Shown: piece by piece, positions 5,876 to 43,960 of the stretch
How the letters are laid out: each line of letters opens with the position of its first letter
Numbering within the stretch: position 1 is the first letter of the stretch
Sequence record: MZ501090
Reading direction: 5' to 3' (one strand)
DNA from: Escherichia phage KarlJaspers
DNA length: 51,474 bases
The notes under the pieces: generated by a model
Database searches by the model: none
What the model was told of the DNA's origin: nothing
Seen by the model: only the letters and a program-made list of their open reading frames with translations
Position numbers and translations under genes: made by a program

Positions 5876-5889
5876 TATTTGGGGTTATC

Positions 5890-20310: not shown

Positions 20311-20554
20311 TAAGACCAGACCACGAAACAGTATTCCCGCTAACGTTTATTGTTGGTGCTCCCCAGTTAACTCCAGCCCACGTCTGCGTTCCAATATATC
20401 CAGCCTTTAATGTTTTTCCTGGCGGCTGATTGTAATATGTCTTGCTTCCTGATGGTTGTGTGAATCTATCCAGGAAGAATACAGGAGTTAATAAACCAGT
20501 AACATCCCTTCCTTGTTCGTCGTAAATTGCGTAACCGTATGCCATTATTTGCAC
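20270..20554 (-). CDS. hypothetical protein (N-terminal part of split gene)
   Basis: 94 aa ORF ending YIYTFWG encoded across (TA)5 tract at 20284-20294. Confidence 0.4.
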   Translation of the reverse strand: MQIMAYGYAIYDEQGRDVTGLLTPVFFLDRFTQPSGSKTYYNQPPGKTLKAGYIGTQTWAGVNWGAPTINVSGNTVSWSGLNAGESRYIYTFWG

Positions 20555-20814
20555 TCCACATAATCAAAATTATCCTCGCTTTGCCACCTGTGAACGAAAG
20601 TTACATATTTTTGTGATGGAGCTACGCGATAGTGTTTTTCACCGAATCTGTTTTCGCGCACAGCGTTTATTTTCACAGGATAGCTATCATTTACAGGGAA
20701 TGTTTTCACCATGTATGAGCCAACGCAATCAACCTCTTTATAGCCCCCATCCATTGACGCAGAACAACCAGTCAGGGCAACGGCGGCAATCAAAACGGCT
20801 ATTAACTTTTTCAT
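20545..20814 (-). CDS. outer-membrane lipoprotein, Cor-like superinfection exclusion (putative)
   Basis: 89 aa; signal peptide with lipobox LTGC; location after tail tip gene as for cor in T1/phi80-type phages. Confidence 0.5.
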   Translation of the reverse strand: MKKLIAVLIAAVALTGCSASMDGGYKEVDCVGSYMVKTFPVNDSYPVKINAVRENRFGEKHYRVAPSQKYVTFVHRWQSEDNFDYVECK

Positions 20815-20869
20815 TTTGGTGTCTCCTTAGTTGTTGTTGGTTGCAACTATACACGATCTTGCGGTGGGC

Positions 20870-20888
20870 GTTTAGCAAAAAGTGCCAT
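20870..20888 (-). promoter_or_regulatory. degenerate copy of conserved motif upstream of cor-like gene
   Basis: GTTTAGCAAAAAGTGCCAT; minus-strand TATAGT and AAGGAG RBS follow. Confidence 0.35.
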
Positions 20889-20959
20889 TCTGTTCTTTTT
20901 GTTCTCCTGCGTTCTCAAATCTGCGGAGGCTTAAATTTAGCTCAAAATGTGAGCAACAA

Positions 20960-21130
20960 TAGAGCGATATACATACAGATAAATATATATACATACATAT
21001 AAATCAATAAGTTAGTAGTATATATATTTATATTTGTTCTTTATTGTTATCTATGTTTTGTGTGATTTTGTGTGTCTGGTGATTTTTCTGTGATTATGTA
21101 TGTGTCAGTGGTTGTGTGTGTCTATATATC
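20960..21130. repeat. AT/GT-rich non-coding island, copy 1 (homologous to 43100-43300)
   Basis: Shares about 48 bp core beginning AAATCAATAAGTTAGT plus GT-rich tracts with second island. Confidence 0.7.
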
Positions 21131-21258
21131 TATATCCGGCGCAAATTGAGGAACAAGAGAACAAAAAGACAACAAAGATATTTATCAATCACTTACATGT
21201 AAGTTTTGTTATCAAAGATGTCTAGAACGTTGTTAGAACAGAAAAAACAAAATAACTA

Positions 21259-21286
21259 TTGACTAAACGCATCAAATAGCTACAAT
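21259..21286 (+). promoter_or_regulatory. sigma70-like promoter for recombination operon
   Basis: TTGACT - 16 nt - TACAAT, 30 nt upstream of 21316 start. Confidence 0.5.
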
Positions 21287-21315
21287 GCAGACATACCAAC
21301 CAATGAGGGCAAATC

Positions 21316-22377
21316 ATGAATAAGTTTATGGCGTACACCAGCGAAGAAATGAGCAACGAGCTTTATCACAATCCAGAAGCGTGGACTGCTGATTATGTTA
21401 GCGGTTCAAGCCTGGCAGAGATTTACAGCACATGCCCGGCAGCGTGGAAGTTCAAGCCGCGTGACGACAAGAGCAAGGCGCTAGTTTTTGGTACGCAGTC
21501 GCATACCAATTTTGAAAGCAAGGAGCTTTTCGAAAAAACCTATCGCCGTGCGCCAGCGCCAGAAGACTTTAAGGATCTGATAACCAGCCAAACGGCGCTT
21601 GCTGCAAAGCTAAAATCATTTGGCCTGAAAGGTACAACAGGAAAGACTTACCCTGAACTTATAAAAATGTTGGTTGACTGCGGAGAAGACCTTAACGTCA
21701 TGTGGTTAATCGACATGATCGCAGAAAGTCAAGCCAGGGCCGATGGGGTTCAGTTAATCGAAGCTAAAGATTACGATGCGTGCGTGGCAATGCGCCAGGT
21801 TCTGGAATCAATACCGGAACATAACGCATGTATGAATAGCAAGACGGCACAACGTGAATTATCGTTATTCGGTGAAATCAACGGCGTAAAAGTCAAAGTG
21901 CGATGCGATCACGTTGACGTAACAAAGAACGTGACAGCAACTCTTATTGATGGTTACGATGAAAAAGGTCAGCCGATTTGCCGCGATATTATTTATCCAG
22001 AAGCTATTGTGATCACTGACTACAAAACAACAATGAGCGCTAATCCGGTTGAGTTTATGCGCCTGGCTTACAATCACGGCTATTATTTGAAAATGGCGTT
22101 GCAATGTGATTTATTCAGAAAAGCGTATCCAGAAGAAAAGCGACCTATAGTTGTGCGACTGTTAGCGCAAGAGAAGAAAGAGCCTTATTTGCCGTTGGCT
22201 TTTCGCATGAATAGCGAGCAATTAAAGATCGGGCGCATTCAGTACATGAGCGTGATTAACCAGTTTGCCATGTGCCAGCAGCATGACGTTTGGCCTTCGT
22301 ATTCAAACGGTGAGCCGGAGGTTTGCCTTGATACTCCTGATTGGGTGCGCCGCCAGTTTAAGCAATATCTTATTTAA
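21316..22377 (+). CDS. PD-(D/E)XK-family recombination exonuclease (putative)
   Basis: 353 aa; VITDYKTT motif; first gene of exonuclease-annealase-SSB module. Confidence 0.5.
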   Translation: MNKFMAYTSEEMSNELYHNPEAWTADYVSGSSLAEIYSTCPAAWKFKPRDDKSKALVFGTQSHTNFESKELFEKTYRRAPAPEDFKDLITSQTALAAKLKSFGLKGTTGKTYPELIKMLVDCGEDLNVMWLIDMIAESQARADGVQLIEAKDYDACVAMRQVLESIPEHNACMNSKTAQRELSLFGEINGVKVKVRCDHVDVTKNVTATLIDGYDEKGQPICRDIIYPEAIVITDYKTTMSANPVEFMRLAYNHGYYLKMALQCDLFRKAYPEEKRPIVVRLLAQEKKEPYLPLAFRMNSEQLKIGRIQYMSVINQFAMCQQHDVWPSYSNGEPEVCLDTPDWVRRQFKQYLI

Positions 22378-28947: not shown

Positions 28948-29880
28948 TTAGAGAATTGATTCAGGTTTGAAAACCTTCCTCTCTATCCCTTGCCTGTAAT
29001 TATCATTAATCGGCATCATAATTTCAAGTCCTCTTTCCTCGGCAGCAATGATCGCGTCACGGTCTGTACTCTTACAGACAACTCTCATTCTTCTGTTTCC
29101 CTTATACCTGTAAGCCACAATCTCAATGTTAGTTGCATCAAAGCAGGCCCAGACCTCTTGACCAGTTGCAAGGTGGATGTGTTGCGCATCAATCCAGTCA
29201 ACGCAAAGATAGATCGTCTTATCTGTACTTCCTGTTCTCACAATCGACCCTCGCGTGTAGTCCTTTGCGAGAAAAGACTGATTGCCGTCTTCATCAATGA
29301 AAAGCACATTGCACATTTCATCATCAATCTCATCTGAGTGTACCAGGTGACACGGTAACGCGTGAATGTATCGGCCATCTTTTACGCCGCAATCATAATG
29401 ACCATCTTCAGGCGGGTATATTCCTTCATATGTGCTTAACGGCGTGCGATCAAATTTTAGTGTTTTTGACATAACGCGCTCGCAGCATTCATGGCTTGCC
29501 TGTTTCCCAAACGAATAACCAGAATCACGAGATACTCGCTTATTTGCCTTGATCCTATAGTCCTGCGGAACTTTTCCAAGAAAACGGCCCAAAATATTGA
29601 TCACTTCGCTGTAAGGTTCTCCGGTTAGCTTCATGATCCAACCAATTCCGGTATCATTACCGCACACGTTGCAGATCGCACCGCCATCGCCTTTTTTATC
29701 GCCAAGTTTATCCGTCCATCTGAAGCGATCCTTTCCGCCGCAGTGTGGGCAAGATTGATGCTTTCCGTTAAAAACTTCATTTGGAAGACCGCAAATACTT
29801 TGTAGCGCCTCACGCCACAATCCTTGCATATATGGGAGAACATCTTCCTTTTGATAAACCATAAAGTTTTCGTTATTCAT
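28948..29880 (-). CDS. DNA primase (zinc-ribbon type, putative)
   Basis: CPHCGG...CNVCG zinc-binding motif and acidic DEIDDE segment; start ambiguous (29880 with GAGGTG RBS, or 29982). Confidence 0.55.
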
Positions 29881-29935
29881 ATACACCTCAAACAAAAAAG
29901 CCTGACAGATGATAACATCATGCCAGGCATTGTTT

Positions 29936-30409
29936 TTAGCAATTAGTGCTTTCAGGTTTATACAGGAATCCGCCAGGTTCATAATCTGACATTCTTACCA
30001 CTCGCAACATTTCACGCTTATCACATCTCTTTGTGAGCGGTTTGCCATTGGAATCAAATCGCAGGTCTGGACGACAGAATGATGCGCGATAGCCTTGACA
30101 TCCATATTTTTTGTAATCGTTATGCACCTTTTGAGCGCCAGCGGCTGAAATCATACCGCGAACGCGCCACTGATTTACAGTTTGCTGGCTAACGTTAAGA
30201 CGTTTTGCCATTGCTGACACGCTTCCGTAATACTCAATAAGGATGTCAAGTCGCGCTTTTAGTCCGGCGCGCACTTCATCTTTTAAAACATAGTATCCCG
30301 TAGGGCGCTTGCGCTTCTTCTTATCCTTTCCTCTTCGAGTTCCGTTATTGCCATTAATTGTGCGCTTGTCAATCTTGCCTGTTGATACTGCGATTCGTTG
30401 CTCTTTCAT
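29936..30409 (-). CDS. HTH DNA-binding protein (putative transcription regulator)
   Basis: 157 aa; basic N-terminus; helix-turn-helix-like SVSAMAKRLNVSQQTVNQW. Confidence 0.5.
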   Translation of the reverse strand: MKEQRIAVSTGKIDKRTINGNNGTRRGKDKKKRKRPTGYYVLKDEVRAGLKARLDILIEYYGSVSAMAKRLNVSQQTVNQWRVRGMISAAGAQKVHNDYKKYGCQGYRASFCRPDLRFDSNGKPLTKRCDKREMLRVVRMSDYEPGGFLYKPESTNC

Positions 30410-34567: not shown

Positions 34568-35683
34568 ATGAAGCAAATCAAAATCACAGATGAACAATTT
34601 ATCAATGAGCGCAAGCAGGGAAAGACATATAAGCAGATCGCTAATGAGTATGGCATGAACGTTCGCAGCATTGAGCGCCGCGCGGCACGATTAGCAAAGC
34701 AAGGTAAAGTTACAACCATCGGATCGCCTGGTTTTGGTGTTACTGGAGAATCAAAGCTAATTGATAAAGATGGCAATGTGGTTATGACATGGATTAAGAC
34801 AAGTAAGGACCGCGAACAGCTAGAAGCATTAATGCAGGCCGCTATTGATGCATTTAGCGAAGAAGTCCCTCGACTTGATCCGCAGCCAGAATCACAAAAG
34901 GATTATAGCGAGACGTTATCACTGTATCCGATCTTTGATATGCACTTGGGCGCAATGGCGCATAAGCATGAATGCGGCGAGAACTGGGATACAGCAACAG
35001 CAGAGCGCGTAATGAATAATTTCATTGATTATTCCATCCAGTGCGCGCCGGATAGCGAAAATGCTGTTTTGCTGATTGGTGGTGACATGCTGCATAGTGA
35101 CGGCCTGGAAGCGGTGACACCTGCAAGCGGTCACGTATTGGATCAAGATAGTCGATACGCAAAACTTGTTTATGTTGCCATCCGGTCAGTGCGTAGAGCA
35201 ATTACAAAGCTGTTATCAAAACACAAAAACGTCGAGATTCAGATCATTGAAGGCAACCACGACCAAAGCGGCATGATCTGGTTGCGCGCAGCAATGGCGG
35301 CAGCATATGAGAATGAGCCACGAGTGCATGTTGATGTGTCTCCGCGAGTAGTTCATCACACACAATATGGCAAAACATTCCTGGCATACCATCACGGGCA
35401 CACTATCCGCAAGCCTGAAACATTGCTCATGATGTGCGCAGCAGACTGGCGCGAAGACTTCGGCAATTCAAAAATGATGTATGCTCACGTAGGGCATTGG
35501 CATCATCAAACAGTAACCGAAACAAGCCTGGGAATTGTTGAAGTGCATAGCACTATGGCGGCAAAAGATGCATATGCGGCGCGCGGTGGATGGCGTTCTC
35601 GCCGCCGTGCGGCTGTTATTGTTTATGATAAAGAATACGGAGAAGTGGGGCGATTTATGCATTATCCAGAAATTGCTGGTTGA
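34568..35683 (+). CDS. calcineurin-like metallophosphoesterase with N-terminal HTH-like region
   Basis: DMHLG, GGDMLH, GNHD, HHGH, GHWHH motifs; N-terminal KTYKQIANEYGMNVRSIERR helix-turn-helix-like. Confidence 0.6.
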   Translation: MKQIKITDEQFINERKQGKTYKQIANEYGMNVRSIERRAARLAKQGKVTTIGSPGFGVTGESKLIDKDGNVVMTWIKTSKDREQLEALMQAAIDAFSEEVPRLDPQPESQKDYSETLSLYPIFDMHLGAMAHKHECGENWDTATAERVMNNFIDYSIQCAPDSENAVLLIGGDMLHSDGLEAVTPASGHVLDQDSRYAKLVYVAIRSVRRAITKLLSKHKNVEIQIIEGNHDQSGMIWLRAAMAAAYENEPRVHVDVSPRVVHHTQYGKTFLAYHHGHTIRKPETLLMMCAADWREDFGNSKMMYAHVGHWHHQTVTETSLGIVEVHSTMAAKDAYAARGGWRSRRRAAVIVYDKEYGEVGRFMHYPEIAG

Positions 35684-35726
35684 ACTTTTAATCATTAAAA
35701 TATAAATATAAATCATCAATTTAATT

Positions 35727-35756
35727 GGGCGTGGCATTTTGCTTCGCCCTTTTTTT
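35727..35756 (+). terminator. rho-independent terminator
   Basis: GGGCG-13 nt loop-CGCCC hairpin followed by TTTTTTT. Confidence 0.65.
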
Positions 35757-35829
35757 ATTCCTTTTTGTGCGTTCAATGGTTAGGATACAAACAATTAATT
35801 GTTGACTTTTATATACAGGAGATCTAATC

Positions 35830-36045
35830 ATGAAAGATTTTTTAAACGCTGCAACTTCCGGCACTGGCGGCGCGTCAATCACTGGCGCGGTAACTGGTCA
35901 AACAACTATTGCAATAGCCAGCTTCGTTTTGATGGCTGCATTTGGTATGTGGGGCGCTTATCTTCGCTGGCGTGATAGTAAGGCGCTACGTGACGCGCTT
36001 GAATGCGGTGATATTAAGAAAGCTATTGAGATCAGAGGGAAATAA
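35830..36045 (+). CDS. holin (putative)
   Basis: 71 aa; one clear TM segment, charged C-terminus; immediately upstream of endolysin. Confidence 0.55.
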
Positions 36046-37758: not shown

Positions 37759-39342
37759 TTACCCCAGCAATGTTGGATTTACGAAAACAACGCCATTAAT
37801 CACACAAATATAATTTCTTTCCTCAAGCATCGGAAGCAGTTGCGTTTCCATGCGCTTCATTACGCCAGCCTGACCAACAAACGGCTTAACTTTTCGTGCA
37901 GCCTCATATATGGCGCGAACATTCAAGATTCCCTTATTAGCCTTTCCGTGTCGAGTGATGATCTCGATTAGTTTACCCATTTCAGCATCATCACCAGCGT
38001 AGCCAGAAGCGTTGGCGGCGCTAATGTATGTTTTGCTCAACTCGCTAAACATCAACAATGCTTCCTGAACGGTTTCAACCTCAATTTCTTTCGACTTCTG
38101 AGGGTATCCACCAGGATTAAACCAGTTGCGGATAGTGTGCAAAACTGAAGCAATCCTGATCACCTGCTTATCCATTTTGCCAAGCGCGCCGCGCAGCATT
38201 GTATGCGAATACTTTCCGCCATCGGCAAGGTGCGGTTCCATCTCCTGACGAGCCATGTTAAGAACTCGCATTGCTGATTTGCTGATCTTAAGCTGGATGT
38301 TTGATTCGCTCATTATGTTATGGATCAGCTTGAAATATTGGCTTTTCAGTTCCCCGTCAACAGGTTCATAAGTAGAATCACCGTTATCATCAACAAACTT
38401 TCTACGGCCTAAAAATGATTCCTCACGCACAAGCAAATAACGCTCACTTACACCGATACCGCGCGATCCTGCATCCATGATGGCATTGATTGTTTCATCC
38501 TGGGCAATTACCGCCATACAGCCAAGAGCTTTAAAACTCATATTGTTGTCAGCGTTTGCACGAGCTATAGAAACATGACCATGATCCCAGGCTTTTAATA
38601 CAAGTTCGCTGTTGGTTTTACGTTCGCTATTGGCATATGTCAGACCTAAAAGGCTGTTAATACTCGTTGCCTCGTCTGAAATTACAGCAAAGTTTCCCTG
38701 GCGGTTGTTGATTCTTGCAAGTCCTTCCGGCGTGGTGTCGGAGACAGGGAAAACAATGTCACACATCTTTTCCAGTTTTTCTTCCAGATCTTCTTTCTCC
38801 TGGTATAGCGATTCCATATCAGCGCCGGAACGCTCGCTTTTCATCTCTTTTGCAAGACCTGCCAACTTTGCCTGAATCTTTTTTCTTTCCTTCTTTCGCT
38901 GATCGTTAATTCTTTCCACTTCTGCAACCATTGGAGCAAGTGCCAGGCTGTTAACGGCAGACTTACCAGTTGAAGGAGGCTGGCTTGTAACAACGTACAG
39001 AGCGGTTGGTTGATCCGTTCCGTGATACTCAACCGTGAAGCGTCCAAGCATTGCAGCAGACACGCAGCCGATAAAATGCATATATGCCGATGATTCAGGG
39101 AATTGAACAGATCGAGCAATGTTGCGCGCCAACTTTCCAACAACATCAACATCATTGCCAAGAGAAATTATAGGGTAGCGATCGTTTCCGTTATTAACAT
39201 CATTAACCTCACCCCAAAAGCTGGACGATTGACGGTATCCGTTTGCCTGAATGGACACGCGCACCGGAGACAATCCTTGTGCATCAGCTAATTCGATAAT
39301 TTGTTTTGGTGTTAGTTTATTGGTTTCAAACGAAAAATTCAT
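37759..39342 (-). CDS. P-loop protein, DUF3987-like (putative replication/primase-associated)
   Basis: 527 aa; Walker A-like SQPPSTGKSA; family assignment from memory, unverified. Confidence 0.4.
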   Translation of the reverse strand: MNFSFETNKLTPKQIIELADAQGLSPVRVSIQANGYRQSSSFWGEVNDVNNGNDRYPIISLGNDVDVVGKLARNIARSVQFPESSAYMHFIGCVSAAMLGRFTVEYHGTDQPTALYVVTSQPPSTGKSAVNSLALAPMVAEVERINDQRKKERKKIQAKLAGLAKEMKSERSGADMESLYQEKEDLEEKLEKMCDIVFPVSDTTPEGLARINNRQGNFAVISDEATSINSLLGLTYANSERKTNSELVLKAWDHGHVSIARANADNNMSFKALGCMAVIAQDETINAIMDAGSRGIGVSERYLLVREESFLGRRKFVDDNGDSTYEPVDGELKSQYFKLIHNIMSESNIQLKISKSAMRVLNMARQEMEPHLADGGKYSHTMLRGALGKMDKQVIRIASVLHTIRNWFNPGGYPQKSKEIEVETVQEALLMFSELSKTYISAANASGYAGDDAEMGKLIEIITRHGKANKGILNVRAIYEAARKVKPFVGQAGVMKRMETQLLPMLEERNYICVINGVVFVNPTLLG

Positions 39343-42263: not shown

Positions 42264-42483
42264 TCAGAACATCACAGGACTCGTTAATAAATTTTGCCAT
42301 GCGCTTATCATCACCAACAGGGATTAGCGCATTACACTCGCGCTTGCTACTGAATACCGTCACTTTATGAAACGATGCGAACGGCATCGACGGGAACTCG
42401 ACTGTTTGCGTCAAGATCCGCAATCCCATCTTTTTGGCCCTTACCTGGGCCTCGGCAAGTTCAAAATCCACTTCATTAATCAT
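42238..42483 (-). CDS. hypothetical protein
   Basis: 81 aa ORF. Confidence 0.4.
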   Translation of the reverse strand: MINEVDFELAEAQVRAKKMGLRILTQTVEFPSMPFASFHKVTVFSSKRECNALIPVGDDKRMAKFINESCDVLIAVKHDQQ

Positions 42484-42752
42484 TTCTTGATCTCCTCAGC
42501 AATAAATTTCAGGACTTTGCGCAAAAACACTTCATTATTGATGGTCGCTGGCAATTCCTCTTTCACTTCTTGCGGCAGGTAAACGTTGCCATGCCAGGTC
42601 AAGCAATCGTAGTTGATACGATAAGAGCAAAGCCACTCGCAATCGTTATCCGCTTCCCAAATGCAGAGTTGCAGAACATCGCCGAAGTCTTCAACAGTCA
42701 GGTCCAGACCGTGACGCTTTGCAAAGTTGAAAGTGGTTTTGCTGATGTTCAT
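42480..42752 (-). CDS. hypothetical protein
   Basis: 90 aa ORF, first gene of leftward early operon. Confidence 0.4.
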   Translation of the reverse strand: MNISKTTFNFAKRHGLDLTVEDFGDVLQLCIWEADNDCEWLCSYRINYDCLTWHGNVYLPQEVKEELPATINNEVFLRKVLKFIAEEIKK

Positions 42753-42815
42753 TTGCTTTCTCCTGATGGGTATCTCGTTTCGATGGGATAACTATACCAG
42801 GTTATCCCGATCGTG

Positions 42816-42834
42816 CTTTAACAAAAAGTGCTAT
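42816..42834 (-). promoter_or_regulatory. conserved intergenic motif copy
   Basis: Minus strand ATAGCACTTTTTGTTAAAG, then GGGATAA...TTATCCC hairpin with TATAGT. Confidence 0.6.
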
Positions 42835-43099
42835 TTGCTGACTGGTCATTATTCCACATATTCCATTAATCAGGAATAACAGGAATAATTCATTCGCGAT
42901 CACCTGGATTGTGAGACTTTGAGTTTGATCAATTTTAATCAGTTGATTAACTTTTTGTGTGGAGGGGATAGAGAAATGCGGCCCTCTTGCATCCTTTCCG
43001 GCAATCCTGGCGCGCACATCTGTTATTTCTGTTCCCCGTGTTATCTCAAATAAGCCTCCGCACTTTTAGATAACAGAATCGGCGTTCATCAACAAAAAG

Positions 43100-43300
43100 A
43101 ACAAAATAAAATTTATATATATACCCATAAAATCAATAAGTTAGTTATATATGTATTTATATTTGTTATTTACTGTTGAGCTTGTTCTATTGGTATATGG
43201 TGGGGTGGTATTGTTTGTGGTGATATGTATGTGTGATTGTATATTTTTTAATCAATGGTGATGTGTGGTGATTTTTGTATGTATATATATGGGTATGGGG
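43100..43300. repeat. AT/GT-rich non-coding island, copy 2 (homologous to 20960-21130)
   Basis: Core AAATCAATAAGTTAGT at 43130-43145 plus GT-rich tracts (GGTGATTTTTGTATG). Confidence 0.7.
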
Positions 43301-43424
43301 CAATCCTCCGTCAACCAAGTCAACAAGGTCATTTTTAACAGAAAAACCAATGGCTTAACTGAAGCATTTTGTTATCTTTAAACACGCCATGCGCCAAAAA
43401 TTGTTATTAAAACACAAAAATACA

Positions 43425-43455
43425 TTGACATGCAGGAAGGGCAAGGCAATAATGC
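43425..43455 (+). promoter_or_regulatory. candidate promoter for rightward early operon
   Basis: TTGACA at 43425-43430; -10 assignment ambiguous (TAATGC at 19 nt). Confidence 0.3.
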
Positions 43456-43489
43456 ATTAAGTTTAAACGCAACAAAAGGAGTAGATGCC

Positions 43490-43960
43490 ATGATCGAAGA
43501 AAATATTAGCACCATGTCGCGTAGTGAGTTCTGCGATATGCTTCGCGACCTGGGCGCGGCAATTGGTAGTGGTGAGCGTAATAATGTATTCATGCCAGCG
43601 CTTTTTTTGTGCGCTAATGTGGAGAACGGCGAAGCAATTACGGCATCGTACATGCGCCAGGTTGTCAACCGCGTACCTGAAGTAAAGCAAAAAGGCGTGA
43701 TCAGCATTAAGCGAAAGGTGACTGATGAGGGTGATGGCTTTGTGTTTGCGCTCACTGAAGCCAAAAGCAAACCTCGTGTTCTGACTGGGGATGATATAGC
43801 GAAACTTGAAATCAAGTGGCGAGCAAAGTTTATTGCTCAACTACTGAAAACACAGCCGCGAATCAGTGATCTGGAAGGTGAGCGCCTGGAGGGTGCGGCA
43901 ATCGCACTTGAGCGAATGAATGAAATGCTCAACGAGATGGTAAAGGTGGGGGATGAATAA
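43490..43960 (+). CDS. hypothetical early protein
   Basis: ATG 43490 with AAGGAG RBS (track start 43430 lacks RBS); 156 aa. Confidence 0.45.
   Translation: MIEENISTMSRSEFCDMLRDLGAAIGSGERNNVFMPALFLCANVENGEAITASYMRQVVNRVPEVKQKGVISIKRKVTDEGDGFVFALTEAKSKPRVLTGDDIAKLEIKWRAKFIAQLLKTQPRISDLEGERLEGAAIALERMNEMLNEMVKVGDE

Follow-up and report, generated by a model that had tools for sequence, protein, structure and literature searches.

The window analysed here is the complete 51,474-nt genome of Escherichia phage KarlJaspers (MZ501090), a T1-like Hanrivervirus of the family Drexlerviridae. A leftward ORF (42480-42752) and a rightward gene starting with the ATG at 43490 are separated by a non-coding region that contains an AT- and G/T-rich island with a G+C content of 27% (43100-43300). 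The rightward gene has an AAAGGAG ribosome-binding site and its start is as annotated in relatives. Both flanking genes are placed as in the first-pass annotation. The island is the middle of a non-coding module of about 400 bp (43021-43424), which is found once more near 21 kb (20891-21258). We refer to the 21 kb module as copy 1 and to the module at 43 kb as copy 2. The features of the two loci are as follows.

42816-42834, minus strand: ATAGCACtttTTGtTAAAG, one copy of the 21-nt direct repeat known from the literature, which precedes the start codon at 42752 by 64-82 nt
42841-43020, no strand assigned: extra segment beside copy 2 only, a candidate pac region, missing from copy 1
43021-43045, plus strand: left cluster of three direct repeats phased at about 10 bp, TGTTATttcTGTTCCccgTGTTATC (copy-1 counterpart at 20891-20916)
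43039-43075, no strand assigned: small palindrome, TGTTATCTCAAA / TTTTAGATAACA, flanking the GC-rich 10-mer AAGCCTCCGC (43052-43061)
43096-43171, no strand assigned: AT-rich core, where the duplex is least stable in the region (z 4.5-4.8)
43131-43143, plus strand: predicted IHF site AATCAATAAGTTA, a perfect match to the consensus WATCAANNNNTTR (same 13-mer at 21002-21014)
43164-43188, plus strand: centre cluster of three direct phased repeats, TGTTATttacTGTTGAgctTGTTCT
43195-43300, plus strand: variable G/T-rich, C-depleted spacer, the island proper (1 C in 106 nt)
43310-43349, minus strand: right cluster of inverted repeats, gTCAACcaagTCAACaagg then tttAACAGaaaa
43345-43357, plus strand: second IHF-like site AACCAATGGCTTA, one mismatch to the consensus
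43367-43424, plus strand: promoter-proximal conserved repeats, TTTTGTTATC (43367-43376) and ATTGTTATTAAAACACAAAAA
43425-43453, plus strand: near-consensus sigma-70 promoter of the rightward early operon, TTGACA-17-AATAAT (11/12 matches)
20891-21286, plus strand: copy 1, the whole module including its promoter, upstream of an operon for a RecE-like exonuclease, Erf and SSB

The strong G/T strand skew first reported for the island is borne out. The 41-mer quoted for it, GGTGGGGTGGTATTGTTTGTGGTGATATGTATGTGTGATTG, has a single occurrence (43199-43239, plus strand), and 43195-43300 is made up of 21 A, 1 C, 35 G and 49 T (G+T 0.79). Given the single C, the spacer contains no GTC sites of the T7 primase type. 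GGTGAT(A/T)T motifs occur in it, and its end is formed by an alternating TA block (43276-43291). Exactly at the right edge of the island the top strand turns from T/G-rich to A/C-rich. A 100-bp window with two or fewer C is found at 43151-43250 and nowhere else in the genome. The two islands contain the most G+T-rich 100-bp windows of the genome (0.81 each) and its lowest duplex stability, whether in windows of 50, 100 or 200 bp (z 4.5-5.3). Both module copies are AT-rich and adjacent to repeats, as a DNA unwinding element is. The third least stable region (35650-35850) was considered as a third copy of the module and proved to be an ordinary terminator and the holin promoter instead.

The AT-rich core is itself an inverted repeat. 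In copy 2, arms of 26 nt that are 77% complementary (43096-43121 and 43146-43171) enclose the IHF consensus, and the corresponding arms of copy 1 (20979-20992 and 21018-21031) measure 14 nt and have a complementarity of 100%. The IHF consensus is matched 10 times genome-wide, against 4.1 expected. The two intergenic regions, 2.4% of the genome in length, hold four of the ten matches. The repeat word is similarly concentrated, with eight TGTT[AC]T per 500 bp in the module region against 0.8 genome-wide, an enrichment of about 10-fold.

The 21 kb island had been described as sharing the same core, and an alignment of 51 columns (ATAAATCAATAAGTTAGT..TATATATATTTATATTTGTT.TTTA.TGTT, about 88% identical) supports this. 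The likeness extends well beyond the core, because about ten flanking sub-elements occur in both copies in like order and at like spacings. The left repeats and the IHF site are 110 and 111 bp apart in the two copies, the IHF site and the centre repeats 33 and 33 bp, and the right repeats and the second IHF-like site 35 and 35 bp. The GC-rich 10-mer is inverted in copy 1 (GCGGAGGCTT, 20923-20932), and other lineages have GC-rich elements at the same place. Over 16 nt, the right cluster of copy 1 (21148-21173) shows 94% complementarity with the left cluster. The second IHF site of copy 1 is perfect (TATCAATCACTTA, 21183-21195), TTTTGTTATC recurs at 21204-21213 at an equal distance from the IHF-like site, and the counterpart of the sigma-70 promoter is at 21259-21286. 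The operons downstream of the two copies are unrelated.

Homologous modules were found in 43 distinct relatives, T1 and TLS included, and in every T1-like phage examined. Among 11 close relatives, the AT core and the centre repeats (43100-43194) have the lowest fraction of variable sites in the region, 0.063. The flanking genes stand at 0.11-0.15, with about 0.33 for third codon positions, and the G/T-rich part reaches 0.217. The position of least stability is retained in the 43 relatives. The strong G/T skew is lineage-specific and not family-wide, as the G+T fraction of the spacer ranges from 0.46 to 0.76 over 43 loci. Repeat orientation is kept: the centre cluster has TGTW over WACA at 144:14 in 43 copy-1 loci, and in the right flank the orientation is reversed, with WACA over TGTW at 194:94 in 43 loci. 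In eight representative genomes, the spacing of same-strand TGT[TA] words has two peaks, one of 9-12 bp with 72 cases where about 17 were expected, and one of 18-22 bp with 58 where 21 were expected. The first IHF site is present in several genera and absent from TLS-like and T1-like phages. The second IHF-like site keeps its position in nearly all lineages, and in T1-like phages it is perfect and on the minus strand. The word GGTGATTT lies 61-83 bp to the right of the least stable centre in island-1 copies, and its variants, G[GT]TGAT[AT]T, are found 40-170 bp to the right of that centre in 25 of 54 loci, T1-like phages included, against a background of 0.18 per kb per strand. An IMG/VR scan with 15-mers returned almost only chance matches, and an 11.8-kb contig with a distant DUF3987 helicase has no comparable island, neither outcome being informative.

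The repeat word itself shifts with the lineage, which fits a phage-encoded binding protein. It is GTTCT/GTTAT in this phage, GTTCAC/GTTCC in TLS, GTTAC/GTTAA in T1 and GTAAT in a further relative (L042). In the phage Fulano1, an exchange has taken in the module's right half along with the promoter and the downstream gene, and the G/T spacer has been replaced.

The module has a defined anatomy, occurs twice, is conserved across the family and sits at the physical extremes of its genome. Judged from sequence, the island is best read as the centre of a conserved non-coding assembly platform for DNA-binding proteins, one of two in the genome. Its features recall an iteron-type replication origin, namely the least stable DNA of the genome, an IHF site centred in an AT-rich inverted repeat, and three helically phased repeat clusters of which the outer ones are inverted. 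Our leading reading, which we hold tentatively and rate at somewhat below an even chance, is that the module is a replication origin built of iterons, an unwinding element and IHF sites, and present twice as are oriL and oriR of SPP1. According to two papers (PMC11447400, PMC7718038), the origin of the family has not been located. The TLS reannotation reports no origin-type repeats anywhere in the TLS genome and does not describe the island module (PMC11447400).

From this layout we infer a repeat-binding protein, IHF binding, unwinding and initiation at the module. A sequence-specific protein would occupy the phased TGTT-type repeats of the left, centre and inverted right clusters. Host IHF would bend the DNA in the middle of the AT-rich inverted repeat and near the right cluster and so bring the repeat clusters together. 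Torsion from this complex, along with negative supercoiling between the divergent early promoters, would open the AT core and the TA block, and the MCM-like helicase (37759-39342) and the zinc-ribbon primase (28948-29982) of the phage would be loaded next. The G/T-rich, C-depleted spacer may be a strand-asymmetric zone that is exposed single-stranded. The two copies would parallel SPP1 oriL and oriR, of which the second is believed to make forks stall and so to set off a recombination-dependent switch to concatemers. Copy 1 lies directly upstream of the exonuclease/annealase/SSB operon and copy 2 beside the packaging start.

Several observations count against an origin. The repeat cores are just 4-6 bp and degenerate, and the words of the two copies in one phage are related but non-identical. 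DnaA boxes were not found in either island, and GATC clustering of the oriC kind is missing, as neither copy of the module contains a GATC site. TLS-like and T1-like phages lack the first IHF site, and the module is not beside the helicase or primase genes. Judged from the ORF map, the orientation of the genes would not fit bidirectional firing from both copies especially well. Every origin-like feature of the module is compatible with a transcriptional control region as well.

Two phage proteins are candidates for binding the repeats. The helicase was modelled (pLDDT 93) as an AAA+ protein that carries a winged helix at its C-terminus, and all of the top structural matches of this model are MCM2-7. 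On this model, the winged-helix domain (residues about 445-527) is a candidate repeat binder. The other candidate is a Cro-like helix-turn-helix protein (29936-30409). The recognition helix of the winged helix is nearly the same in this phage and TLS, despite their differing repeat words. No clear co-variation of the repeat word with the winged helix of the helicase or with the recognition helix of the helix-turn-helix protein was seen in a comparison of three genomes. An initial homologue search with the C-terminus of the helicase gave eight near-identical fragments. Sequence and profile searches of the PDB with the helicase, the primase and the helix-turn-helix protein gave a Cro-type helix-turn-helix as the sole informative match.

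One of the closest parallels to the proposed origin is SPP1, whose two origins, oriL and oriR, are similarly organised, with direct repeats as well as an AT-rich unwinding element (PMC6316719). As in SPP1, a pac-type siphophage, there are two separated copies per genome that combine repeats with an AT-rich unwinding element. The AT-rich islands are likewise the strongest composition bias of the SPP1 genome, and SPP1 encodes a 5'-3' exonuclease, an annealase and an SSB that serve the concatemer switch (PMC6316719, PMC3485210). The published description of SPP1 includes no IHF sites (PMC6316719). The SPP1 initiator gp38 binds its repeats and oriL lies within gene 38, whereas both copies are intergenic here. 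SPP1 uses a DnaB-type helicase with a loader, in place of the MCM-like helicase and phage primase, and the hosts differ.

The origin of plasmid pSC101 is laid out as an AT-rich region with an IHF site, three direct iterons, inverted repeats and a promoter, and in the pSC101 and R6K gamma origins IHF bending joins distant sites. The module follows the same order, from an AT-rich region with an IHF site through three direct repeats to inverted repeats by a promoter. In contrast to the plasmid iterons, which are 17-22 bp and about 22 bp apart, its repeats have a 5-6-bp core and a period of about 10 bp. It has neither a DnaA box nor a downstream rep gene, and it has in addition a G/T-rich spacer of 100 bp and, upstream, a third repeat cluster. 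The ori and crr of satellite phage P4 carry the type I iteron TGTTCACC, to which the alpha primase-helicase binds through its C-terminal winged-helix domain. P4 is similar in its two separated cis elements with short TGTTC-type repeats, and the (T)GTTCAC of TLS relatives matches the iteron at 7/8 positions. The T1 primase is annotated as P4-alpha-like, and the replicative helicase has a C-terminal winged helix. However, the repeat word here is TGTTCT/TGTTAT and not TGTTCACC, primase and helicase are separate, the helicase is MCM-like and not of superfamily 3, and no sequence match to any solved structure was found, the P4 alpha origin-binding domain included. On the repeat word, the separate genes and the MCM fold, the module was not assigned to the P4 ori/crr class.

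The first-pass annotation proposed that the island, by its position, controls both early transcription units. Part of this proposal stands. The island lies between divergent units with a sigma-70 promoter 125 bp to its right, and the phased repeats and IHF-type sites would suit a regulatory nucleoprotein complex. Other points reach further than promoter control: the island contains no detectable promoter, the module also heads the unrelated 21 kb operon, and the skew that had been stressed is not conserved in the family. As the main rival to the origin, a control region for the divergent early promoters is possible, if doubtful. A phage regulator, for example the Cro-like helix-turn-helix protein, would act with IHF on the repeats as operator or architectural elements, and would activate, shut off or insulate the strong early sigma-70 promoters and the leftward promoters with the direct-repeat motif. 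The AT core would be a bendable or supercoil-sensitive hinge. Consistent with this, both copies lie between divergent units and 120-125 bp upstream of a near-consensus sigma-70 promoter, and just three sigma-70-like intergenic promoters were found in the TLS genome (PMC11447400). All the way from the right repeats to the -35 hexamer, with the IHF-like site and TTTTGTTATC in between, the spacing is conserved. In Fulano1 the module's right half moves with the promoter and its gene, and the phage-encoded Cro-type protein has a recognition helix that varies between lineages. Distance argues the other way. An UP element or IHF-activated promoter has its AT-rich or IHF site in a range of about 40-110 bp upstream of the transcription start. 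The second IHF-like site, 68 bp upstream of the -35 hexamer (43357 to 43425), fits this range, whereas the island (125 to about 330 bp upstream of the hexamer) is outside it. Upstream distances from the promoter are 240-330 bp for the most conserved part, the core and the centre repeats, and 380-400 bp for the left cluster. On the other side, a packaging-site-like segment of about 180 bp separates the island from the leftward motif. The instability and the three phased clusters with inverted outer arms also exceed the known needs of upstream-promoter or IHF-activated promoters. An origin role and control of early transcription could coexist in the module.

The 21-nt direct repeats of TLS and T1, aaATAGCACnnnTTGnTAAAA, are a different element (PMC11447400). 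They resemble the module in being conserved, non-coding repeats of T1-like phages with no assigned function, and one lies to the left of each island (42816-42834 and 20871-20888), the latter directly abutting the left repeat cluster of copy 1. They differ in number and placement, with 18-21 sites per genome that are always about 76 nt upstream of a start codon, as opposed to two sites of about 400 bp.

A more specific form of the origin reading, and an unlikely one, is that the copies are paired cis elements for the MCM-like helicase. The pac-side copy would fire as the origin, and the copy at the recombination operon would be a programmed fork barrier or second origin that turns replication to recombination-dependent formation of concatemers, with the C-depleted G/T strand as a strand-specific helicase-loading pad. 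In this scheme the pac-side copy belongs to the terminal redundancy and so occurs at either end of the first packaged chromosome.

It is quite improbable that the island belongs to the pac signal for the small terminase subunit, on the model of P1 or SPP1, where bent or IHF-bound DNA and short repeats stand beside the cut site. The T1 record begins at the left end, with a 2.8-kb terminal repeat. The pac of TLS was mapped 5,882 bp from a HindIII site, and the site at 5876 places pac at position 1 of the TLS record. In both phages the homologue of island 2 starts about 190-200 bp to the right of that end, and TGTGATT-like words are shared by the G/T-rich spacer and the surroundings of the T1 and TLS ends. 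However, the published left end or pac, which is position 1 in the records of T1 and TLS, corresponds on alignment to about 42900-42960, about 150-250 bp to the left of the island, the published mapping being coarse. These ends fall in a separate segment (42841-43020) with features of its own: a palindrome (ATTATTCC..GGAATAAT, 42848-42889), GATC/TGATCA sites (42898, 42927), TGATT/TTGA repeats and an IHF consensus on the minus strand (42936-42948). The segment is missing at copy 1, while the island is duplicated at 21 kb. Restriction analysis of TLS gave a single submolar pac fragment, although the coarse mapping leaves some overlap possible. Short repeats and an IHF site near the packaging start are known from P1 pac and lambda cosB. 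The GATC-containing hexamers at 42898 and 42927 are of this kind, but such features are confined to 42841-43020 and are not part of the island, which occurs twice in the genome. A pac site would be unique and contain the first cut, and here the ends lie to the left of the element.

We consider it very unlikely that the island has no sequence-specific function and is an AT-rich flexible spacer, a supercoil sink or a region for host nucleoid proteins, with the G/T skew a by-product of mutation or of strand composition where transcription diverges. The switch of strand composition at the right edge does fit the divergence of two transcription units, the skew differs widely among lineages, and the spacer of Fulano1 has been replaced. 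Yet the core is conserved far beyond synonymous sites, the spacings of the sub-elements are identical in the two copies and across subfamilies, and GGTGATTT and its variants keep their position well above background.

It is hardly credible that a small protein or a structured non-coding RNA is made from the island, since the minus-strand hypothetical protein that several relatives annotate across 42802-43128 is interrupted in many others and the island is not flanked by a promoter and terminator pair. The small minus-strand ORF (42802-43017/43128) has stops or frameshifts in many relatives, shows no codon-position bias (14, 12 and 15 variable sites at positions 1, 2 and 3) and has no PHROG match. 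RNA and DNA folds of both strands were no stabler than shuffled sequence (z +1.6, +1.0, +0.2), and Rfam gave no match at the gathering score or at E <=1. Two other kinds of element were rejected. Chi or Chi-like GCTGGTGG has 39 matches with up to one mismatch, none of them in either island, and the G runs of the island are, by eye, too short for a G-quadruplex.

Delbruck's original seven T phages include T1, and the Drexlerviridae are among the most often isolated coliphages and a notorious laboratory contaminant. The module gives this family a duplicated, family-wide and precisely bounded pair of DNA targets of about 400 bp each. Should the origin be confirmed, it would reveal the way in which an MCM-like phage helicase is recruited in bacteria and the reason for the two copies, and offer a handle to engineer or disable T1-like phages. 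Were the two copies paired elements for that helicase, they would represent a new origin architecture, in which tripartite 10-bp-phased mini-iterons are combined with dual IHF bends and a strand-asymmetric loading zone, and in a classic phage family would tie replication, recombination and packaging together. If the module is instead a transcriptional control region, it still defines the operator architecture of the early genes. Either way, the protein annotations across 42802-43128 need revision.

The first-pass annotation described a G/T-rich island at 43100-43300 as the second copy of an island near 21 kb, placed between the divergent early genes. We found each part of this description in the sequence. 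The interval 43195-43300 is composed of A21 C1 G35 T49, the 41-mer quoted from it occurs once in the window (43199-43239), the island at 20960-21140 has in common with it a core of ~88% identity, and the flanking genes are as described. No 100-bp window with two or fewer C exists in the genome outside island 2. The two highest G+T fractions of any window in the genome (0.81 each) fall in the two islands, which are also its two least stable duplex stretches at all window sizes tried (z 4.5-5.3). The G/T-rich island is, however, merely the middle of a larger module of ~400 bp (43021-43424), followed by a promoter and the rightward gene. The parts of this second copy (copy 2) are as follows.

Parts of copy 2 and the adjoining promoter and gene start
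43021-43045, three left direct repeats (TGTTAT/TGTTCC/TGTTAT), spaced 9-10 bp
43039-43075, small palindrome with a GC-rich 10-mer inside
43096-43121 / 43146-43171, AT-rich inverted repeat
43131-43143, perfect IHF consensus match AATCAATAAGTTA at the centre of the AT-rich inverted repeat
43164-43188, three centre direct repeats (TGTTAT/TGTTGA/TGTTCT)
43195-43300, C-poor G/T-rich spacer with GGTGAT(A/T)T motifs
43276-43291, alternating TA block at the right end of the spacer
43310-43349, inverted repeats of the right cluster
43345-43357, second IHF-like site with one mismatch
43367-43376, conserved word TTTTGTTATC
43425-43453, near-consensus sigma-70 promoter
43490, start codon of the rightward gene

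Copy 1 (20891-21286) contains all of these parts in unchanged order. The two copies have 111 and 110 bp from the left repeats to the IHF site, 33 bp in both from there to the centre repeats, and 35 bp in both from the right repeats to the second IHF site; these distances are almost equal, and the one marked difference is the G/T spacer, longer by 33 bp in copy 2. There are eight occurrences of the word TGTT[AC]T in 43001-43500 and another eight in 20501-21500, whereas its genome-wide rate is 0.8 per 500 bp. The two module regions also hold 15 of the 25 TATATA-type words and 7 of the 10 ATACATA words in the genome, and their intergenic regions hold 4 of its 10 IHF-consensus matches (4.1 expected genome-wide). 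The GC-rich 10-mer is GCGGAGGCTT in copy 1 (20923-20932) and the exact reverse complement, AAGCCTCCGC, in copy 2 (43052-43061), with flanks (TCTCAAAT ... TTTAG) in the same orientation in both. Other lineages have GC-rich elements of either orientation at this position, which separates the left repeats from the AT core.

The window is a complete genome (51,474 bp) of a T1-like siphophage. The 900 bp surrounding island 2 matched 128 phage records, best among them the Hanrivervirus phages phiE31-2, SFP17, JakobBernoulli (Drexlerviridae; Tempevirinae; Hanrivervirus) and herni at 93-94% identity. About 20 UNVERIFIED 'Campylobacter phage' records (A131, A127, A134, A123, A118 and others, among them L201, MG065665.1) are Drexlerviridae genomes, 90-96% identical to coliphage Hanrivervirus in the island-2 region, and are probably mislabelled or contaminant phages. 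The gene content is consistent with the T1-like assignment.

Genes of the window
21316, RecE-like PDDEXK exonuclease
22786, Erf-type annealase
28948-29982, minus strand, zinc-ribbon primase
29936-30409, minus strand, Cro-like helix-turn-helix protein
30433, superfamily 2 helicase
37759-39342, minus strand, DUF3987 helicase

Our comparison of the module covered 44 IMG/VR loci, each with a RecE-like gene and the DNA upstream of it, together with the complete genomes of T1 and TLS. Of the 43 distinct sequences, all except L046 have their least stable 60-mer 289-343 bp upstream of the start codon of the exonuclease. In this locus (IMGVR_UViG_2974632794_000001) island 1 is cut off inside the G/T-rich spacer and fused to an exonuclease-gene-like fragment, a junction that is either a rearrangement or an assembly artefact. 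The 43 sequences show a strong orientation of the centre cluster (TGTW:WACA = 144:14) and a reversed bias in the right flank (94:194). Same-strand repeat spacings in eight representative genomes peak at 9-12 bp (72 vs ~17 expected) and at 18-22 bp (58 vs 21 expected), which is helical phasing. The repeat word itself varies by lineage: the window has GTTCT/GTTAT, TLS-like phages have GTTCAC/GTTCC, T1-like phages have GTTAC/GTTAA, and the locus L042 has GTAAT. In any one phage, copy 1 and copy 2 carry related words that are not the same. Hanrivervirus and several further lineages carry the first IHF site, which was not found in the TLS-like or T1-like phages among the 43 sequences; the second IHF-type site is shared in position by nearly all lineages, on the other strand in T1-likes. 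The island-1 copies have GGTGATTT at 61-83 bp to the right of the least-stable centre, and 25 of 54 loci, including all T1-like copy-1 loci, have G[GT]TGAT[AT]T matches at 40-170 bp to its right (background 0.18 per kb per strand). The G+T fraction of the spacer is ~0.72 in Tempevirinae and ~0.58 in T1-likes, with a minimum of 0.46; the strong skew is not universal among relatives.

In an alignment of 14 Hanrivervirus sequences the AT core and centre repeats have the lowest fraction of variable sites (0.063); the flanking genes have 0.11-0.15, rising to ~0.33 at third codon positions, and the G/T spacer has 0.217. Fulano1 (L200, OL539459.1; 380-810), a natural recombinant, has an island-2 left half nearly identical to that of the window up to a breakpoint near 43204, beyond which come a shorter spacer lacking G/T richness, inverted repeats of TGAAC type, and a promoter and first gene that differ from those of the window. 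The halves of the module are thus separable, since the left half was kept with a different right half, and what is maintained is the architecture, not the spacer sequence. Between modules, the conserved core seems to serve as a recombination junction.

A likely packaging signal lies next to island 2. Position 1 of the T1 record is the left end, with a 2.8-kb terminal repeat. Published mapping placed the pac site of TLS 5,882 bp away from a HindIII site, at an AGATTT, and the TLS record has a HindIII site at 5876 and begins with AGATTT. In both, the island-2 homologue starts ~190-200 bp right of position 1. Both ends align to ~42900-42960 of the window, within a segment of ~180 bp (42841-43020) that is likely the pac region, although the published end and pac mapping in T1 and TLS is coarse.

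Features of the segment 42841-43020
within 42841-43020, palindrome ATTATTCC..GGAATAAT, full form ATTATTCCacatATTCC-attaatca-GGAATaacaGGAATAAT, also in T1 (L002, 48765-48805)
42898 and 42927, GATC/TGATCA sites
within 42841-43020, TGATT/TTGA repeats
42936-42948, minus strand, IHF consensus

This layout recalls P1 pac, with its GATC hexamers and IHF. The segment adjoins island 2 only; in copy 1 the left repeats are directly abutted by a 21-nt direct-repeat motif. Because the ends fall in a segment missing from copy 1, pac would be a neighbour of copy 2 and not the island. Minus-strand copies of the 21-nt direct repeat published for T1-like phages (ATAGCAC-N3-TTG-N-TAAA) lie at 42816-42834 and 20871-20888, each followed 21-22 nt downstream by TATAGT, a -10-like hexamer. 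This distance is too great for a normal sigma-70 -35 and suggests activator-dependent promoters. T1 (60-125) and the T1-like loci L063-L071 have a second direct-repeat copy immediately left of the island-2 repeats, so that their pac-like segment is bracketed by two such motifs; the second copy is preceded, leftward, by a perfect hairpin (TACCAGG-TTCG-CCTGGTA) and a 7-codon mini-ORF.

Other signals were not evident. A minus-strand hypothetical protein is annotated across 42802-43128 in several relatives (JakobBernoulli bas07_0066, slyngel gp66, herni gp31, grams gp09). The annotation is probably spurious, because the frame is interrupted by stops or frameshifts in many relatives and its variable sites (14/12/15) show no codon-position bias; it has no PHROG match. 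Folds of both strands are no better than those of shuffled sequences, and the island has no Rfam match. The islands contain no Chi, near-Chi or DnaA box, and neither module contains GATC. An AT-rich region at 35.7 kb, considered as a third copy, is an ordinary terminator and promoter.

Two proteins are candidates for acting on the module. The AlphaFold model of the DUF3987 helicase (alignment of 60 sequences) is confident (pLDDT 93, pTM 0.91); in it a C-terminal winged helix (predicted elements H451-468, E472-474, H475-482, H494-508, E512-515, E518-521) follows an AAA+ core. The top Foldseek matches in the PDB are all MCM2-7 subunits (best E 2.6e-6, TM-score ~0.34); no solved structure matches at the sequence level. 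An exhaustive search with the helicase C-terminus gave 121 relatives. The last ~75 residues of the helicase are also a stand-alone domain in ~170-aa proteins (P0046, P0079, P0093, P0094, P0103, P0114). The protein upstream of the primase is a Cro-type helix-turn-helix protein. Across three genomes we saw no clear link between the recognition helix of either protein and the repeat word.

The module is a real and strongly constrained cis-acting element, so far undescribed in the accessible literature. From its sequence, it is probably an origin-like region of iterons, unwinding element and IHF site, and we tentatively propose that it may serve as an iteron-type replication origin. This is the reading best indicated by the features taken together: the least stable DNA of the genome, an IHF site at the middle of an AT-rich inverted repeat, three clusters of helically phased short repeats with the outer ones inverted, lineage-specific repeat words, strict spacing and two copies per genome. 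The origins of pSC101 and R6K have a similar layout. Under the twin-domain model, divergent early transcription at either side would supply the unwinding element with additional negative supercoiling. Copy 1 is directly upstream of the exonuclease/annealase/SSB operon. The duplication resembles the oriL/oriR pair of SPP1, two similarly organised copies that combine direct repeats with an AT-rich unwinding element, the second of which has been suggested to halt forks and to trigger recombination-dependent concatemer synthesis (PMC6316719). The main alternative, in which the module serves the divergent early promoters as an operator or architectural region, would explain the conserved spacing from the right part of the module to the promoter and the co-transfer of right half, promoter and gene in Fulano1; we consider a purely regulatory role somewhat less likely than an origin, and the two roles are not mutually exclusive. 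According to the accessible literature, no origin has been found in T1-like phages (PMC11447400; PMC7718038). As a possible iteron-type origin, the module gives this classic phage family a specific candidate for its missing origin, one that is easy to test.
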